NCBI RefSeq assembly: GCF_963921235.1
Contig: NC_086097.1
Coordinates: 72,852,001 to 72,916,000 of the forward strand
DNA length: 64,000 nt
Source of the DNA: Mobula hypostoma
Taxonomy: Eukaryota
Direction of reading: 5' to 3'
Of this stretch, positions 24,749 through 58,680 are shown piece after piece (the stretch's first letter is position 1; the number at the start of each line of letters is the position of its first letter). A program made the translations under genes and the position numbers. Below the pieces are notes generated by a model that saw only the letters and a list, made by a program, of their open reading frames with translations, did no database searches and was not told the origin of the DNA.

Positions 24749-27589
24749 TTAATAATCCCTTAGACCAGGCTCCAACTCAGCAAACTTCATAGTGGCCAAA
24801 AACACTGATGAATTGCGACCAATGTAACCTCTCATTTGGTTTTGTCCCGGACCACAATAACAAGGGTCGTCCCATTCCGACTCAGTTTTCTCTCGCAAGG
24901 GCTTAGTAGGAGGGGGACGGGTATTGACCGCAGAGTTATTGCAAAACTTCCTGCAGTACCCCACCATCTCCAAAAGCCTTCTGAGGGCCCTCTTGTCTGT
25001 CGGGGTTGGGAGGTCAGCGATAGCCTGCACTGTAGCTTGCATCACTGCCAGCTGCCCCTGTGTCACCACAATTCCCAGGTAAGTGACATTCGTGTGGCCG
25101 AATTCATTTTTTCCAAGGTTCACTATCAAGCTGGCTTCAGACAGCCGTGTTAAATTGCCAATACACACCTCTGTGTTCATCAGCCCTTTAGTCACTGAAT
25201 TACTCAAAAAATATGGGTGTTGTTTACTTGGCCGCCCTATTGTAACCGACATAACCCAACGTCCCAGTTCTTTGCATTTCCTCGGGACAATCAAACACAT
25301 GGGTGCGAGTCGTTTAATTACTCCTTCGGGGATTAAGGGATAGACCTTATCAGTAGACCTGGCCAAAACAATAGCCTTCTCCCATCTGACCGATCCCATC
25401 CTAATCTTTTCAAAATGGTTTTTTCCTCTTATCAAGGGGCCCCTAGCTTCATTGATTTCCACGCTAACACCGACTAGGTTTGTTAGCATATCAAAAGCCG
25501 GTGACCGTCTCAGTTCGCGTCGGTCATGATCAATAACATTTTTCCCCCTGGGCAGCCGGTAACTCTCTTTCATGATTCCACCAACTGTTTCCTCCAGCAC
25601 CGCAAAATGTCCACCGGGGGGTACCTCGTGGGCCATGTTAAAAACCTCATCCCCATAACTCTTTTGCACCACCCCCCATTCCTCATCTGCGGGTACTGTA
25701 CTTGATTTCCCTTTCTTCTTTAGCACTTCCTCATCCGCACAATAGCTTGTCAAGGTTGTGTCAGAGAGAGCGGTCTCGGCAAAAACCATCAGCCCCTCGT
25801 CTCGCTCCTGCGTCTGCACAAATTCTTTCCTGGCTACTGCTACGTCCGTCCCAGCTCCCTCACTACCTCTTATCTCACTACACCCTGTCTCATACAAGGT
25901 TGGCAGAAATGTTTCAGCCAAATTCACCATCGCGGGCGGGGCCTCCATGCTGGCAGGCTGACCCGTCAATCTCACGACTGGGAACACGATTCCTCCGGCG
26001 ATGTCATTACCGAGCAAGACTTCCACGTCTTTCATCGGTAATTCGGACCTCACCCCAATCGTGACTAGTCCAGAGACCAGGTTGCTCTGTAAATGTATCT
26101 GGTGCAAAGGGACTGACTCTGTCCCTTCCCCAACACCTTTGACCTCTACCTCCCCAGTCTGGGTCTCTGAGCTAAACTCTAATACACTCTTCAGTATTAG
26201 TGACTGACACGCTCCCGTGTCTCTCCAGATCCGCACTGGAACTGGTTTTAACCTCTTTTTCACTGACACCAGTCCGGCCGAGATAAACCTCTCGCGCCCT
26301 TCCTGGACTTTTTCAGACCTGTCCTTCCCTAGCGGTTCGCTTAACAGCTCAATACAGCCATTCAAAATTTCCGCTTTTCCTTTCCCCGTCTCCTTCCTTG
26401 GGGCAAAGCACCTGGACGCAAAGTGTCCGACTTTCCCACAATTATAACAGACGACCCCAGGAGACTTCCTACCAGACTGCTCCCGGTCTACCTTATCCTT
26501 TTCACTAGTCCCCGGCTTACTTTCTGACTTTTCCGGTGGACTCCCCCCGCCGTCCTGACTACCCTTCTGGTAGCCTTTACTCGGGGCAAACTTCATTTTA
26601 TGCGTCAACGCATACTCATCCGCTAACTTAGCAGTTGCGGCTAACGTGGCTGCCTCTTTCTCATCGAGGTAGGGTCTCATACCCTCAGGGACACAACCTT
26701 TAAACTGCTCAATCAGAATCAGCTGCAGCAGTCTGTCATAATCCCCCTCTACCCCCTTCGAGGCGCACCAACGCTCACAACATGTTTGCATCTCGCGAGC
26801 AAACTCCAAATACGTGCGGTCCCACTGCTTCCTCACATTCCGGAACCTCTGCCGGTATGCCTCCGGGACCAACTCATAAATCCTGAGGATGGCCTCCTTC
26901 ACCACCTCATACTTCTGGGCATCTTCCGCGGATAAGGCGGAGTAAGCTTGTTGGGCCTTCCCTTTCAGTACACTCTGAAGTAAGACAACCCACTTATCCC
27001 TCGGCCATTCCTGACTTATAGCTACTTTTTCGAAGTGGAGAAAGTACCGATCCACATCGGTATCGTCAAATGGGGGAACCAGCCTAACCTCCTGGGTCGC
27101 CCGGAACCCTCCACCTTGGTTCGGCACGAGCCCCTGCTCGGCCCTTATCTTTAACTTCTCCAGCTCAAATTCCCTTTCCCTCTGTTTCTCCTCTCTCTCC
27201 AACTGTCTGTCCCTCTCTCTCTCTTCTCTCTCCAACTGTCTGTCCCTCTCCTGCCTTTCTAACTCTCTCTCTTTCTCCTGCCTTTCTAACTGCTTCTCTT
27301 CGTGTTCTAACTGCCGTACCCGGAACTCGTGCTCGAGTCTCAGTTTTTCAAGCTGTACCTGTACCGCGTCTCCAGCAGGTTTTTCAATAGACACCTCCCC
27401 CAGCTCACCTTGGGGAAACACACCTTTAGATACATAGTGCTCTACAATAGCTCTGTGTATCTCCTCTCTCCTCATTGTCGACTTCACCTTAGCAAGATTC
27501 ACCCGTTTTGCCACAGCTATCAATTCCGATTTCCTGGCATCCTCTAATGCCTCCAAGGTCGGCGCCTTTATAAATTCCTCAACCTCCAT
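24749..27589 (-). CDS. gag-pol: Gag-protease polyprotein with degenerate IN/RT/RNase H remnants (946 aa)
   Basis: E/R/Q coiled coil (aa 80-150); capsid/SCAN-like region VPPF..YFLHFEKVA..WP..ELVPEAYRQRFR (aa 170-330); CCHC knuckle CYNCGKVGHFASRC (381-394); protease RDTGA (456-460) and LLGNDIAG; IN Zn-finger remnant AHEVPPGGH (653-661); RT remnants QHPY, EVCIGNL in place of YxDD (809-812), NLGKNEFGHTNVTYLG, LRRLLEMVGYCRKF. Confidence 0.9.
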   Translation of the reverse strand: MEVEEFIKAPTLEALEDARKSELIAVAKRVNLAKVKSTMRREEIHRAIVEHYVSKGVFPQGELGEVSIEKPAGDAVQVQLEKLRLEHEFRVRQLEHEEKQLERQEKERELERQERDRQLEREERERDRQLEREEKQREREFELEKLKIRAEQGLVPNQGGGFRATQEVRLVPPFDDTDVDRYFLHFEKVAISQEWPRDKWVVLLQSVLKGKAQQAYSALSAEDAQKYEVVKEAILRIYELVPEAYRQRFRNVRKQWDRTYLEFAREMQTCCERWCASKGVEGDYDRLLQLILIEQFKGCVPEGMRPYLDEKEAATLAATAKLADEYALTHKMKFAPSKGYQKGSQDGGGSPPEKSESKPGTSEKDKVDREQSGRKSPGVVCYNCGKVGHFASRCFAPRKETGKGKAEILNGCIELLSEPLGKDRSEKVQEGRERFISAGLVSVKKRLKPVPVRIWRDTGACQSLILKSVLEFSSETQTGEVEVKGVGEGTESVPLHQIHLQSNLVSGLVTIGVRSELPMKDVEVLLGNDIAGGIVFPVVRLTGQPASMEAPPAMVNLAETFLPTLYETGCSEIRGSEGAGTDVAVARKEFVQTQERDEGLMVFAETALSDTTLTSYCADEEVLKKKGKSSTVPADEEWGVVQKSYGDEVFNMAHEVPPGGHFAVLEETVGGIMKESYRLPRGKNVIDHDRRELRRSPAFDMLTNLVGVSVEINEARGPLIRGKNHFEKIRMGSVRWEKAIVLARSTDKVYPLIPEGVIKRLAPMCLIVPRKCKELGRWVMSVTIGRPSKQHPYFLSNSVTKGLMNTEVCIGNLTRLSEASLIVNLGKNEFGHTNVTYLGIVVTQGQLAVMQATVQAIADLPTPTDKRALRRLLEMVGYCRKFCNNSAVNTRPPPTKPLREKTESEWDDPCYCGPGQNQMRGYIGRNSSVFLATMKFAELEPGLRDY

Positions 27590-27663
27590 TTCTGCTGTTT
27601 GTCTTTTCTTTCTTTCGGGAATTTTAACCCAATCAATTTACTCCGTCCCAAATTTAGCGTTCA

Positions 27664-50599: not shown

Positions 50600-51330
50600 T
50601 TTTTCCTAATGCTGAATCAATTCTAATAGCCAACAAGTGATGATATCAAGATTATTAAAGAAATAGCATTCTCCTGTAGCTATATTCTCTTATTCAGATC
50701 AGCCTTTTCACATTAAAGCCAAGACATTAATGAGTAGGCTTCAAAAAACTATTAATAGAACAAGGCTGATGATTAAGCTAATGTGATTACATCCCCAAAA
50801 GAAGAATTGAAATGGTAATAGTAGAGGTTCTTAAATATTAAATGATATAAAATAAAAAACTGAGAAAATACATAAATGTGATAAAACTAAAATACAAAAT
50901 TAAGAATTTACAATTATGTAATTATTTAGTGTTGGGCATGTGACCAAGTGGTTAAGGCGTTCGTCTAGTGATTTGAAGGTCACTAGTTCGAGCCTCAACT
51001 GTGGCAGCGTGTTTGTGTCCTTGAGCAAGGCACTTAATCACACATTGCTCTAGTCTGTGCGAGGAGTGATGCCCCACACAGACTTCCAATCTGCACCTTG
51101 TAAGGCATGAAAATGCCCGACGCAGGCCTCTCATGGTCTGCGTCGACGCTCCCCCCTAAGGTTACCAAGGGAAAGCTTCTAGGGGAGAATTTGCGAGGCT
51201 TGTCTTTACTACCAAATTATGACCAGTTGTACATTAATGTTAGGTAGTCATGGCTCATGGTGGTAGTCTAGGTAGATGACATCTTAATTGTTAATCATGT
51301 GATTTAGAGTACAAGATAACTATACGAGAT
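50600..51330 (+). pseudogene. possible very old integrase core + RT remnant
   Basis: PVAIFSYSDQ (50673-50702), in-frame LHPQ (50787) and VV*VDDILIV (51263-51292); weak. Confidence 0.3.
50934..51157 (+). mobile_element. tRNA-derived SINE
   Basis: A box TGACCAAGTGG, B box GTTCGAGCC, then the TGTGTCCTTGAGCAAGGCACTTAA core typical of fish SINEs. Confidence 0.8.
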
Positions 51331-53179
51331 TAAAAACTAATGAATGAATGTTTCTATTAGGTAGCTTCAAAGAATATGTGTTTATGGAAACATTTTGTGA
51401 TAGAAAGGATCCCAAGTCTCCATACTTGCATTCCTTAGCTGCAGCATATTTGAGAAAGACCAGAAGTGTAATCAAAGAGGCAGGCTCTGAAATGTAGGAG
51501 GGAACATGTAAGATGAAAGGGTTTTGAAGGAGAGAATTCTGAAGAGTATAACTATGACACCTAATGGCAGAATGGAAACAGCAGTGGACTCACAGAGAAA
51601 AATCAAACTGGGACATGAGATTACAGAAGGAAGTGGAGTAAGCCCAGCAGCAAGAGGATTTACAAATAGTGATTGTGAAAATTAACGTTGCGAAGATGGA
51701 GGGCAGCCATTTCCGAAATACAGAGCAAAACATCGCAGCAATTTATCAGACAATATTTGACTCTGGAACTACTGGGAGGCTAATAGGGTTGCTGTCTAAA
51801 AGTTTAGTGAAACAGATAAGGTATCAGAAAGAAAGAAGTAGAGAGGTAGAATTTATTCCATTTTTCAGTAAGTTCTCAATGTGGTAACATAAGTGCATGG
51901 AATTCTGCTTCTGAAGTGAACGGAACCAAATTTCATGTACAATGGTCAACAGATTTCTATCCTGTGGAGGTTAGTGTAATGAACACCCAAGTATGCATGG
52001 CTATGACCAGAGGTAAAACAATTAAATTCAAGTCTGATTAGTGTGTTCAGAATCAGTGAAGTACAGATATCCCAGAGAGATCCAGGTCCAGAGAGATGGC
52101 ATTCTCTTAATAATTGTAAGTTAACTTCCAGCTATATTCATTATTTAGTTTCTGGTCATAAATGGGACCCGGTCTTCAGTACTTAATGTAAGTGGAAAGC
52201 AGTAGTCAATTTAAAGTTGAAAAACACAGTTTTGCAAGCAAGCACTGTATATCGCTTAGGATCTTGGCCACAGCACCTGTCTTATTGCCGAAGAGGTGCA
52301 GTATAAGACAAGGATTTTTTGATTTGACTTGTTTCAAGTACAACAATGTTGGCTAAGTTGTTCAATTCAAGGAAGCTTGCACACAAGATGGAGACAATCA
52401 CTTAGTACATCAAAAACTGATCTATTAATAAGATGGAAAGTTTACAAAATCAGCGAAGTTAGCTTCACAATATTAATTGTGGGTACTTGGGATCTCTGTC
52501 TACAAGAAGCTTTTAGACCACTTTTGTTAAAATGTATCTGAAAGAATATCACGTGTGTGAGAAGTCCTCCAAATGGCAAAGAAACTGTATAAATGTAGAG
52601 AACGGTTCAGGCTTATTAGAAATGGGGTAAGAAACATCAAGAAGCATGGAAGAAACACAGGACGAACAAGAATCCATTCCTCTGCCTTCAATATTTGTGA
52701 CAGACATCATTTGCATCATAGGTATGTCTTTTTAGACAACAGGAATTGTATCCATGTTTTGGAAATCCTTTGTGTTTTAAAAATGGTTTGTAATTCGCAA
52801 ATCTTTAATAAGATAGAAATCATCGTAGTTTTAAATGTGTTTTAAGAATGTTGTTTGGAATTAGAAGTACATCACTGTAAATAAATGAACTGTATTTTAA
52901 ATTATTTTGTTAGCAGGTAGTATCTTATTGGTGGGGGGGGGGGCTCACCAGTCAAATATTGGGTATTGGCATTGAAACTCACCATGGAGAATAAACAGGG
53001 AAGTGGCCCAATCTTTGAAGATTGGGTCATTACAGTATAACCTTCCTTTAATGAGGGTACTCAAGACTATTTATATCTGATAAGGCTTAAGGTCTTCAAT
53101 AGAGTTTAGAACTTCACTGTCAACAATTCCAATACCATCACTGAATAAACTCTAGACTATCATCGAGACAAAATGATCA

Positions 53180-55430
53180 GAACAAAATTGAAACATATTT
53201 GTGCAAATATTATGACCATATACATCAATATCCTAATCACTGTGGGATGGTTGATATTGAATCAACTAAATTAGGATGCAATCTTTTCCCACGCCAGAAA
53301 GAGTGGCATATTACTGACTATAAGGAAAACAATCCCCAGAAAACTGCAGATTCCCTCTATAAACAAGATATTTTTGATAAAAGAACATTCCTGATTTAAC
53401 TTGCCCATGTTTGGTGCAGCAAACCCTGATGGACAATGGTGATTGGTCATCGACTACATCATCCTAAATAAAAACACAGAACTTGTCGTGGCCCAGAAAC
53501 AGGTATTATAGCAAATAGACTTATAAAAACTTTACATGGATCTAGCTAATGGTTTCTGGTCACCCTCACTTTTTGAAAGTGACAGACATTACACAGCCTA
53601 AAGCACCCAATAGCTTACAATGTCAGTGGACCAGATTCCCACAAGGTTTTTTAGAATACTGCACCAATATTTTTTGCAGGAGTCTTTCAAACTCTACAAG
53701 GAATTCCAAAAGTTTGTGTGTATGTTGATGATGAACACACAGATTCACTGGACACAGATTGAAACTGACATTAAAAGATCGACAGACAGAAGCTATGTAA
53801 TTAACATTAAAGATCTCAACCCTGTCATACAAAAGTACATTTCCTAGTTTTGACAATTACTAATCAGGGACCGTGATTTAACCCCTGAATTTAGACAAAA
53901 GTCTCTCAAGTGGGATATCCAATAACCATAAAAGCCTTGCACTCAACCCTAGGCCTATTGAACAACGCCAGAGCTTTCATACCTGACTATGCTCAATTCT
54001 CAAAATCATTATACATTAGATGTTCACCGAAGAATGAAAGCTCCTTTGTTTTTACCGCAGGAGATTATGAGGCACTAGAGAAATTGATGATTGCAGTTCA
54101 GCAAGGAATAGAGCTCTGGACAAAAGACCTAACAAAACTTTTTCTTCTGCAAATTCATGTTGCTCAAAATTTGCAGTGGCCTTCTGCTATAATGAGAGAG
54201 AAGAAACACAAGCTCCCATGCACTCTGCCTCATAGCATAGTTTCACCCCAACAGAACAGAAATGTATTGCCTTACAATGATATCTTACTATGGTTATTCT
54301 ATACACTTGTAGTAAGGTCACTGCAAGAGAATAAACCAATTATTATACAAACAGAAACTGTGACTTTGAAAAATGATAGCAAATTAGCTACCATAACTCG
54401 ATATGGGAAATGGGAAATACTTTTACAAGACAAAACATTAAAATGGGAATACATTCCTGAGAACTATGACTTACAATAGTTACCTGTTATGGAGAGTGCA
54501 GAACCATCTTCTCCAAGACCCAATGTAACATGACATCCTTTAGAGCACTATTCTCAAATATGCTACTGGCATGGATCAGCAATCAGAATATAACTATAAT
54601 CCCTGCTCTTGATTGTAAAAGGGCATTTTTTTATTTATCAGAAACAGAATTTGAATAACGTGAGTTGCAAGCACATCCTTTAGGACAGGGGTTCCAATCC
54701 TAGGGTCCATGGAACCCTTGGTTAATAATATGGCTCCATTGCATAATAAAAGTTGGGAACGCTTGCTTTAGGGAATCGTGCAGCTCAGTTTGCAGAGGGA
54801 GGCTAAAGCCCTTGAATTATGTCTAAGACTATAGAACCATACTTGACTGACTCGGATTATGTTAGGAATGCTGTAAAAATCAGATCTCTCATCTGATCAG
54901 CTACTGGATGAGAACACACCGAGGTAAAGTGCTACCACATTTGTCCATATGAAAGAATATTTTATGAACTACTATTGACTCGACCATTAGCATGGGTGTT
55001 ACATGTCCCAGGACATACTGCAGGTCTCCTATTCATCTGTGGTAATAAGCCAGTAAAACAAGCTGTCAGAATGGACTTTACTCCAATAAGAGAGGCCAGG
55101 ATTTTGGAATGAACTCAGTAATAAGGAAAAAAAACAATCAGGATAATGTTTTAGCAATTCTCCGAAACAATACTGAACCCAATCTCAAAGCATTTCCAAC
55201 ACTGTACAAATAAGAAGCTGATGGTGAAGGTAAGGTTTGGGTTTGCAGCTCCAAGAAGGATAAAAAGCAAGTACAAGTAGAAAGCATTGATTCAAGAAGC
55301 CTAACAAGGACTTGGATCGAATCATGATGGTAGACAAGCTACTGATGCGAAATTAGCCATGTTATACTGGTGGCCTAACATGTTGAGTGATTCTAAGCAA
55401 TTTATTGCAATTAGTAAAGATTGTTAGCCT
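53180..55430 (+). pseudogene. pol: endogenous foamy-like retrovirus pol (RT-tether-RNase H-IN N-terminus), decayed
   Basis: In order: HQYPNHCG..RQKEWHI..DSLYKQ (53199-53399); PMFGAANPDGQW*LVIDY (53404); DLANGFWS (53539); WTRFPQGF (53627); GIPKVCVYVDD (YVDD 53721-53732); LHSTLGLLNNARAFIPDYA; RYGKWEILLQD; HPLEHYSQICYWHGSAIR (~54534-54587); PLG|NRAAQFAE; LTDSDYV; HVPGH..GN; HDGRQATDAKLAMLYWWPNM (55323-55382). Confidence 0.88.
54686..54765. mobile_element. 80-bp hAT MITE inserted in the foamy-like RNase H
   Basis: CAGGGGTTCC...GGGAACGCTTG with TSD CTTTAGGA (54678-54685) / CTTTAGGG (54766-54773); removing it restores HPLGNRAAQFAE. Confidence 0.85.
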
Positions 55431-55439
55431 TGAAGATTG

Positions 55440-57533
55440 TTGAAGATGCTGGAGAGGTGGTGATGGGGGAACAAAGAAATGGTGGATGAACTGAATAAAT
55501 ATTTTGCATCAGTTTTCACTGTGGAAGACACTAGCAGTATACTGGAATTTCAAGAATGTCAGGAGGCAGAGGTGTGTGGAGTTGCCATTACTAGGGAGAA
55601 GCTTCTTGGGAAACTGAAAGATCCGAAGGTAGATAAGTCATCTGGACCAGATGGTGTACACACCAGTGTTCTGAAAGGGGTGGCTTAAGAGATTTTGGAG
55701 GTATTAGCAGTGATCTTTGAAGAATCTCTAGATTCTGAAATGCTTCTGGAGGACTGGAAAATTGCAAATACCACTCCACTCTTCAAAACGGAAGAGAGAC
55801 AGAAGAAAGGAAATAATACGCCAGTTAGTCTGACTCAGTGGTTGGGAAGATGTTGGAATTAAATGTTAAAGAAGTGGTTTTGGGGTACTTGGAGAAACAT
55901 AGTAGTCAGGCTGGTTTTCTGAAGAGAAAATCTTGTCTGACAAATCTATTAGAATTCTTTGAAGAAATAATAAGCAGGATCGACAAAGGCAAATCGCGAT
56001 GGATGTTGTGTACTTGGATTTTCAGAAGGCCTTTGGCAAGGTACCACACATGAGGCTGCTTAACAAGTTAAGAGCCCATGACATTATAGGAAAGATACTA
56101 GCATGGATAAAGCATGGACTGCTTCTTTTTACTTTATATGTCAATGACTTGGACAATGGAATTGATGGCCTTGTGGCCAAATTTGTGAATGATACAAATA
56201 TAGGTGGAGGGGCAAGTAGTTTTGAAGAAGTTGAGAAGCTACAGTAGAACTTAAACAGATTAGAAGAATGAGCAAAGAAGTAGCAGATGGAATATAGTGT
56301 CGAGAAGTGTATGGTCATGCACTTTGGTAGAAGAAATAAAAGCAGAGTTTTTTCTAAATGGAGCGAAAATTCAAAAATCTGAGCTGCAAAGGGACTTGGG
56401 AGCCTTTGTGCAGGATTCCCTAAAGGTTATTTTGCAAGTTGAATCTGTGGTGATAAAGACTAATTCAATGTTAGCATTCATTTCGAGATGACTAGAATTT
56501 AAAAGCATAGATGTAATGTTGAGGCTTAAAAAGCACTGGTGAGGCCTCACTTTGAATAATGAGAGCAGTTTTGGCCCCCTTATCTCAGAAACAAAAATAA
56601 TCCTGGGATTGAAAGGCTTGTCATATGAAGAGCATTTGATGGCTCTGGGCCTCTACTCACTTAAATTCAGGAGAATGAGAAGTGACCTCATTGAATGTTG
56701 AAATGCCTCGATACAGTGGATGTGGAGAGGATATTTCCTGTGGTGGGTGAGTCTAAAGCCTGATTTATACTTGTGCGTACGGGCTACGTTGTAGGCCTGA
56801 TTTATACTTCTGCGTAGCCCTACGCTGTAGTGAGCATGCGTTGTTGTGTCTGCGTCGCTCTGCAATTCACCGCCAAAACATTAGTAGGCGGTGGGGTTTC
56901 TATGCCACTGTGTTGAGTTTCTTCATGAAAGACATGGACGAGGAAATGCACTTCAAATATTTTCGGATGTCAGCGGGTAGATTTGACGATTTGGTTCATC
57001 ATCTCCAACCATTTATTTCGCATCAGTGTACAGACATGGCGGAGAAAAGCAACCGGAAATGCAATGCTACCAAGCGGACCAATCACAGTTGTTACGGTCT
57101 GCGTCACCGCGACACGTGAGTTACTTTTTTGGGGAGGTGCACATCACCCTACGGCATAGGGTGCGGCACAGGGTACGCAGTACCCATGGCGTACATTTGA
57201 CGCAGAAGTATAAATCAGGCTTAAGACCAGAGAACACAGCCTCAGAATAGAGGGGTGTCCATTTAGAAGAGATGAGGAGGGATTTCTTTAGCCAGAGAGT
57301 GGTGAATCTGTCCAATTCATTGCCACAGGTGGCCATGTAAGTCAAATCATTGGGTATACTTAAGGCGGAGGTTGACGGATTCTTGATTAGTCATGGCATG
57401 AAGCAGTATGGGGAGAAGGCAAGAGTTTGGGGGTGAGAGGAAAAATGGGTTATCCATGATGAAATGGTGCAGCATACTCAATGCGCCAAATGGCCTAATT
57501 CAGCTGCTATATCTTAAGGTCTTAGGGTCTTAT
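55440..57533 (+). mobile_element. 5'-truncated CR1 LINE inserted in the foamy-like provirus
   Basis: ELNKYFASVFTVED, SSGPDGVHTSVLK, YLDFQKAFGKVPH, FVNDTNIGG; tail TCTTAAGGTCTTAGGGTCTTAT. Same subfamily as 8281-12895. Confidence 0.9.
56757..57221 (+). mobile_element. non-autonomous PIF/Harbinger element with transposase fragment
   Basis: TIRs AGCCTGATTTATACTT / AAGTATAAATCAGGCT; TAA TSD (56754-56756, 57222-57224); internal peptide MDEEMHFKYFRMSAGRFDDLVHHLQPFISHQCT like the Harbinger transposase N-terminus. Confidence 0.85.
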
Positions 57534-57539
57534 AAAATG

Positions 57540-58680
57540 AAACTGTTTTCATCCCTGGTCAACTGATAAGTCCAATAAGCATTTTAGAGATTTTAGTCCC
57601 GTAGAGTATTGTATCTAACCAGGTTTCCTACTTGTCCCTAACCAAACAGTCATGAATAGATTGTGCTGTAGTGCAAATAATACCTGACCACAAAAATTCA
57701 TTCAGAATTATTGGTGTCCTTACGAATTCAATTTTATTTCAGACAGACTTTGAATACAAGTTGAAAAATGGGGAAACAAGCCTATGATAAATGTTACTGT
57801 TGGAGACCTGTTGATAATGCTGAATTTTGAGGTTGCACTGATAACATTACTCCACAAATAGGCAATGTTACATACACAGACAAACCTTCAATTAAGGCTG
57901 AGTAGCTCAGTCAGATAGTATTATCATCAGCAGGCAAAAAAAAAAAGCAATTTGGCCCTTAACAATTTTCATGACATTAAAAAAAATATATTAGAGTAAA
58001 ACTGCCTGTAAAGCCACGCCTTAACAGTGTTCACTCACATAATAACATTGATGTGATCTTTCATTTCACTCCGAAGGTAGAAATTTCTGCTGACAGGAGT
58101 TGTTCATTCATACTGTAATCAGAGGTTTTTATCACTTTTTAAGGTTTATAGAGGAAGTGACTCTTGGAGTAATCTGATTAGTTAATCTGTGTTGCGAATC
58201 TCAAGGCACGATCCAGGTTTAAGGAACGATTTATGATGGATGCAACAAGGAATATTCTAGAAGGGCTTGGTATTTGTCCACAAAGCTGAGTCAAATCAAA
58301 ATAATATTTCTCTGTATAGTATGACAGTAACTGAACTGATACAATCAGACAAGCGAGTCACCTCCTTTTACAAGTTTCCCTGCAGACTCAGACTAAACCC
58401 TTGACTGGCTTAACGCTAGAGGTGAAACAATCGCTAAGACCTTTCCAGCTGTTGCAAATTTAGCTTCTGCAGCAGCAAATATAGTTTCTTGTAACACACA
58501 GATGTAGCTGAACATGACTACATGGTAACTCTTTGCATGTAGTTTCAAAGGGAATCCTCAAATATTTCCTTTTAGGACTACTACAGCTGAAACCCACAGT
58601 CGCAGCCATGGGTAAGCAATGTTGTTTTAAGATGCTTAATTTATAAAGTCAGTGATATTAATTTACATTCAAATCCACTA
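57540..58680 (+). pseudogene. env: foamy-like env remnant (internally deleted; mainly TM subunit)
   Basis: Collinear peptides LSQI (57906), NNFHDI (57961), LSTKLSQIKI (~58275), RQASHLLLQVSL (~58348), TLDWLNARGETIAKTFPAVANLASAAANIVS (58397-58489), SKGILKYFLLGLLQLKPTVAAMG (58545-58613), LIYKV (~58636). Confidence 0.65.

Follow-up and report, generated by a model that had tools for sequence, protein, structure and literature searches.

The window, a stretch of 64,000 nucleotides from Mobula hypostoma, holds a decayed, internally deleted provirus of the foamy clade, larger than the sequence-only reading of this DNA had described. Taken alone, the window copy is a commonplace decayed insertion that shows no sign of function. 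In its sister copies gag and pro share one frame that is interrupted by an amber codon, and the arrangement of the reading frames suggests that the polymerase was probably made by readthrough of this stop at the end of gag. The combined account of a dead, deleted foamy-clade provirus, whose family colonized the germ line in a single old burst and made Pol by amber readthrough, is the one that we somewhat favour.

A foamy-like provirus in the window

The sequence-only reading had listed Pol motifs seen across frameshifts. All nine that we searched were found where it had placed them, spread over three frames (one was searched minus its first residue, which spans an insertion). A frameshift-aware comparison, proposed in the same reading, was made with a profile built from reference foamy Pol proteins and gave a foamy Pol alignment with a score of 312, versus at most 33 in controls (29–33 for four shuffles, 27 for the reverse strand). 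Positions 140–600 of FFV Pol align to 53235–54587 of the window, with 140 of the 440 matched residues identical (32%), 8 stops and 9 frameshifts. The longest open stretch matched only foamy PR-RT structures in the PDB (five, best E 3.5e-5). The tether noted earlier is present and is followed by a second RNase H, and env lies 3′ of pol, the arrangement by which Retroviridae are recognized (tether background in PMC7947760). The parts of the provirus and its insertions are as follows.

52115–53141, forward strand: 5′ LTR without the initial ~110 bases; TATA box at 52588, AATAAA at 52880, terminal CCATCAC
53142–53150, forward strand: deletion joint; primer-binding site, gag and protease absent, so that the LTR abuts RT
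53150–54050, forward strand: reverse transcriptase, interrupted by stops and frameshifts; YVDD at 53721 (motifs, PDB, profile alignment)
54050–54440, forward strand: tether (degenerate first RNase H), corresponding to FFV ~425–551, PF17919/PF17917 region
54555–55100, forward strand: RNase H, broken (motifs, profile alignment); first catalytic position non-acidic in the window copy
54686–54765, no strand assigned: 80-bp MITE in RNase H, bounded by terminal inverted repeats; target duplication of 8 bp
55323–55424, forward strand: integrase zinc-binding domain (PF17921, E 9e-6, above the Pfam cut-off); remaining integrase absent
55430–57530, forward strand: LINE fragment (ORFs, weak RVT_1, E 0.006), occupying the place of the integrase core and of 5′ env
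57532–58489, forward strand: env remnant, covering part of SU and stopping just short of the membrane anchor, 73% to sister-copy env

A genome search with a 1.9 kb upstream query (4184 candidates, 40 scored) found a sharp-ended repeat of ~1.03 kb. Since this repeat stands on both sides of pol in sister copies, it is the LTR. The orthologous LTR in species D and G has 113 additional letters at its 5′ end. Sister copies carry 700–2800 bases at the position of the window's deletion joint, and contigs of species D and G also span that joint. The MITE, presumably hAT-like, has a family of its own (708 candidates, 40 scored at 82–88%) and is missing from the sister copies of the provirus. The LINE fragment, which we take to be CR1-type going by its RT motifs, has very high depth in the comparison with other species' contigs; within it, 56757–57230 is a different insert with near-repeated ends. 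In the env remnant, positions 362–392 of the foamy Env profile score 47 versus a shuffled maximum of 24. No 3′ LTR was found within 20 kb beyond the window end. The window copy would be one that later lost gag and protease, gained the MITE and the LINE, and decayed neutrally.

Upstream of the LTR, coding-like DNA at 51200–52105 was considered as a part of the element and rejected; it is single-copy flank with fairly long stop-free stretches, and a Pfam search of it gave no match. A young SINE-like repeat of ~207 bp (50950–51157, copies 93–96% alike) lies close by and is missing at the orthologous site in species D and G, which makes it a lineage-specific insertion.

Pol belongs to the foamy clade

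Among the 32 matches returned by a search of 1.84 billion proteins, the top three were P0001, a Scyliorhinus torazame protein (P0002) and FFV Pol. The lower-ranked matches were of Gypsy type. Together with an in-frame gag stop like that in the gamma-, epsilon- and snakehead-type layout, they are what speaks for a Ty3/Gypsy element or a non-foamy retrovirus (snakehead-type, lokiretrovirus or gamma/epsilon), an assignment that is very improbable and already largely refuted by the following results.

A foamy clade that includes the copies received an SH-aLRT of 100 in a quick tree of 44 rows and 100/100 in trees of 24 and 21 rows built from RT plus tether (LG+G4), the trees being without teleost, coelacanth, amphibian, ERV-L or published shark foamy sequences and the copy frames being read with a foamy-derived profile, which could slightly favour a foamy placement. 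The AU test rejected a grouping of the copies with Gypsy (p 1e-91) and with L206 (p 4e-49), a sequence of 10,688 bases that is presumably a snakehead retrovirus. Both L206 and the 'NYNRIN-like' proteins, which we take to be lokiretrovirus-like, fall outside the clade of the copies. The foamy Gag domain of the sister copies, their foamy primer site, LTR ends and 4-bp duplication, and the tether with its second RNase H also stand against a non-foamy origin. Trees, AU tests and protein matches thus bear out the earlier view of the element as foamy-like and retroviral rather than Gypsy; a grouping of Pol with Ty3/Gypsy or non-foamy retroviruses, which that reading had named as a refutation, was rejected for Gypsy and for L206. 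The membership of the family's Pol in the foamy clade is supported.

The nearest named row in the tree is the catshark protein (89/86), with a path of 1.5 changes per site; because of this long branch the window family is at least a distinct family. This protein (GCB66461.1) is annotated as a PR/SET-domain protein fused to a foamy RT-tether and is probably a chimera produced when gene prediction took in an intronic ERV. A histidine at the first RNase H catalytic position was considered as a trait in common with it and discarded, four sister copies reading D (2) or N (2) there. P0001 is an apparently intact foamy-like Gag-Pol, a single frame of 1687 aa with no stop, encoded on a contig of 10,956 bases (Logan); the frame comprises Gag, PR, RT, RNase H and IN, making it a candidate for a living or very young foamy-like virus with fused Gag-Pol. 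Word-based protein searches with the window read and with the gag alignment gave no match, nor did a search of a phage collection. A Gypsy- or loki-type pol remnant (L021, E02) that is unrelated to the family lies ~4 kb past the 3′ LTR on the opposite strand.

Foamy-like ERVs of sharks and rays were already known before this family. Cartilaginous fish endogenous foamy viruses (CFEFV) were reportedly described by Wang, Chen and Cui (2023, J Virol). CmiFLERV is a foamy-like ERV of a cartilaginous fish (PMC5512871), and 293 elements are reported from the small-spotted catshark in PMC10699275, the source of ERV-Spuma.0-Sca; all three resemble the window family in being foamy-like ERVs of cartilaginous fish, or of probable ones. 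Amphibian foamy-like lineages are treated in bioRxiv 2020.12.18.423569. Such elements being in print, the suggestion that this one might be undescribed is weakened.

Anatomy of the family

A pol query of the genome, the search for paralogues that the sequence-only reading had recommended, yielded 291 candidates (40 scored), with long matches 70–77% identical. The window element is thus one copy of a large family, which weakens the earlier description of it as rare. Complete LTRs measure 1078–1153 bases and end in the terminal inverted repeat TGTGATGG...CCATCACA; both LTR ends were present in 11 of 20 solo candidates. A target duplication of 4 bp fitted best (mean match 0.64 versus 0.24–0.36 for 3, 5 and 6 bases), with at least three of the four bases agreeing in 6 of 11 cases. 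The pattern of LTR end plus primer site matched 35 times in the genome and never in the control. The primer site matches the foamy Lys site and stands two bases past the LTR, as in FFV, and the leader is common to 26 of the 30 primer-site loci. A purine tract with a G run precedes five of the nine located 3′ LTR starts. Two LTR variants differ just past the TATA box (equivalent to 52620–52640 of the window): one has an ATG plus a consensus donor, and the other, found in most gag-less copies, lacks this pair.

Four of seven gag pieces from sister copies contain Gag_FV_central (PF20672), two of them above the cut-off (best E 6e-10). This Gag has an Arg-rich end and no Cys-His box, its last 220 codons being free of any Cys column. 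Foamy_virus_ENV (PF03408) appeared in two of nine env pieces, below the cut-off (best E 5e-4); the env pieces show a hydrophobic leader as well as a basic, cleavage-like motif. Neither the gag nor the env pieces matched anything in the PDB. Genome searches with PF03408 and PF03539 (the Spuma A9 protease family) were uninformative, having found no match while their controls were equally silent. In some copies ~1.7 kb of shared sequence without a family match lies between env and the 3′ LTR. A frame of 201 aa in one copy (L002; Atlas 0.95, trypsin-like clusters) was rejected as a join of the leader and gag frames in that copy only, with Pfam empty.

The family is foamy-like in most cis signals and genes. 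With exogenous foamy viruses (PFV/SFV, FFV, BFV, EFV) it has in common the Pol clade, the central domain and the two C-terminal features of Gag, the position of the Lys primer site, the purine tract with a G run before TG, the 4-bp duplication, the long LTR and, less surely, the leader and cleavage-like motif of Env. It differs from them in an env region of ~2 kb versus 2.96 kb, in a Pol that is ~30% identical to theirs, in a gag that lacks an in-frame AUG, and in the single frame of gag and pro, which is broken by an amber codon and offers pol no AUG. The start codon of its own, in a frame other than that of gag, by which pol is strictly recognized in Spumaretrovirinae, is thus not found in this family. 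Teleost foamy-like ERVs, going by excerpts of PMC5210030 and PMC5512871, are similar in the Lys primer site, the GGGTG-type border of tract and LTR, the 4-bp duplication and the missing Cys-His box; unlike them, the family has a Gag of ~580 codons (versus >1100), no ORFs seen between pol and env, and a genome of ~9–10 kb.

The gag-pro junction

Stop counts per alignment column in 39 copies revealed one frame from the leader to RT, with two alignment slips allowed for. In only 3 of 722 codon columns did half or more of the codons read as stops. Two of these columns are CGA codons decayed at CpG. The third, at the gag/pro boundary, reads TAG in 17 of 28 copies, TAA in 3 and CAG in 3, and is the sole majority-stop column that such decay leaves unexplained. 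It lies 26 codons 5′ of the catalytic Asp of the protease and in frame with it; the 26 codons contain one ATG in total among all copies. The stop is common to the full-length and the deleted gag-bearing classes.

In gag, columns 64–600 (more than 170 codons) are free of in-frame ATGs, the first standing at about codon 275 and columns 600–690 being outside the scan. Because of this long stretch, we infer that gag was started at a non-AUG codon or from an LTR exon joined to it by splicing. Gag-Pol would then have been made by readthrough of the in-frame TAG. Single in-frame stops 5′ of DTG between gag and pro are also a feature of gamma- and epsilonretroviruses, snakehead retrovirus and XtERV-S. 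Readthrough of in-frame gag stops is reported for gamma-, epsilon- and snakehead-type viruses, with a separate start in foamy viruses (excerpts of PMC13517186), and for XtERV-S (excerpts of PMC8278194). L206 has one such stop. Unlike these viruses, the family is foamy-type in Pol, Gag and cis signals, and apparently also in Env. A literature search that covered neither Wang, Chen and Cui 2023 nor supplements turned up no foamy-like ERV for which readthrough is described.

Several observations speak against readthrough: the RNA downstream of the stop folds weakly (mean z −0.81 in 16 copies), an AG of suitable phase follows the stop, P0001, the closest relative that is intact, reads from Gag into Pol without a stop, and gag, too, lacks an in-frame ATG. 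The second of these bears on splicing as the route to Pol. Here Pol would have come from its own spliced mRNA, as in foamy viruses (PMC7828637, in part), an AUG-bearing LTR exon having been spliced to an acceptor just past the gag stop, whose in-frame position would be coincidental. An upstream AUG exon is needed anyway for a gag without an in-frame AUG, and an LTR exon used for gag could also have served pol. The window LTR has an ATG with a consensus donor 30 bases past the TATA box, and AGs of matching phase occur at the start of gag and after its stop. The latter, 6 codons past the stop, has the right phase for a spliced pol mRNA, and a start there would put the catalytic Asp about as far in as in foamy Pol. 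Against this, AGs of the required phase are common, the candidate ATG and donor are exact in only 11 and loose in 20 of 61 LTR pieces, and by chance the stop would be in frame only one time in three. In addition, pol stands in another frame and overlaps gag in seven of seven exogenous foamy genomes. Weighing these points, we regard a spliced pol mRNA as rather unlikely.

P0001 and the CAG codons bear on another explanation, namely that the ancestor had a single Gag-Pol frame, as in that 1687-aa relative, and that the amber codon was a defect of the source element, whose gag-bearing copies were mobilised by an unseen helper. CAG stands in 3 of 28 copies, and defective classes were clearly amplified. 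However, three CAG are close to the expectation from neutral decay of TAG, full-length and deleted gag-bearing classes alike carry the stop, and a virus must make more Gag than Pol. A defective source is accordingly improbable.

Separate translation of Pol is a textbook mark of foamy viruses. If readthrough of the amber codon is the true route, the separate-Pol trait postdates the split of this lineage, and readthrough is likely ancestral. A fuller scenario is doubtful as a whole and is put forward tentatively: a basal foamy virus of cartilaginous fish, as yet unpublished, that may have made Gag-Pol by amber readthrough and started Gag from an LTR exon, with a separate pol mRNA arising later and complementary gag-less and RT-less variants spreading.

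Deletion variants

Among 13 primer-site loci followed past the branch point, ten continue into gag and two into protease, and one is interrupted. In the gag-less class, the start of gag (~110 codons) is joined in frame with the protease site at a microhomology of 5 bases, a joint found at 17 distinct loci under strict scoring, including seven of the ten best pol paralogues. In the gag-bearing class, the sequence breaks off after the protease Asp and the RT active site is missing, with its two joints found at 12 and 14 distinct loci; the samples of both classes are biased by the queries, so that proportions cannot be drawn from these counts. A further common deletion, from inside the protease to the RT thumb, was seen in L134, L146 and L151. 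The classes are not clades in the DNA tree, and an attempt to assign the window copy to one of them failed, the tree being star-like.

Variants with fixed joints that were amplified beside full-length elements are known from cattle ERVK D-type, IAP I-delta-1, ETn/MusD and RecKoRV (PMC10924933, in part). Unlike those, one class of the family lacks most of gag and keeps RT, RNase H and IN behind the gag-protease fusion, and the second keeps gag and lacks the RT active site. The variants may have arisen by template switching, and, with the known defective ERVs as a parallel, intact viruses could have supplied proteins in trans to both. The family would then be an old case in which defective variants outgrew their helper.

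Age and spread

A DNA tree of 34 copies is star-like, with end branches of 0.10–0.17 (median 0.14) and none of 31 inner branches starred. Shared variants fall on the three codon positions in the numbers 72/73/64, with no excess at the third, and this test gave no signal of selection on replication. Star tree and codon positions together point to one burst from near-identical sources followed by neutral decay; the germ line likely acquired the copies in a single old burst.

Nine comparisons of LTR pairs gave K2P distances of 0.16–0.27 (0.20–0.22 for the three longest). Orthologous loci, which the sequence-only reading had proposed to look for, were found as contigs of species B, D and G that bridge flank and LTR and differ by ~2% (B) and 6.5–9% (D, G). 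The insertion is accordingly roughly three times older than the split from D and G. With rates in PMC4422223 (in part), a distance of 0.21 corresponds to ~48 million years at mammalian and to ~480 million years at shark rates, the latter implausibly old; the true age likely lies between the two. Low shark mutation rates are given per generation only in the part of PMC10587355 consulted. The family would put a lower bound on the age of foamy-like viruses in this group of hosts, and common insertions could be used as phylogenetic markers.

Elsewhere in the window, 24749–27637 on the reverse strand contains an open frame of 962 codons with SCAN and zinc-knuckle domains, followed by protease/RT-like text. 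It is a fairly young Gypsy-type element.
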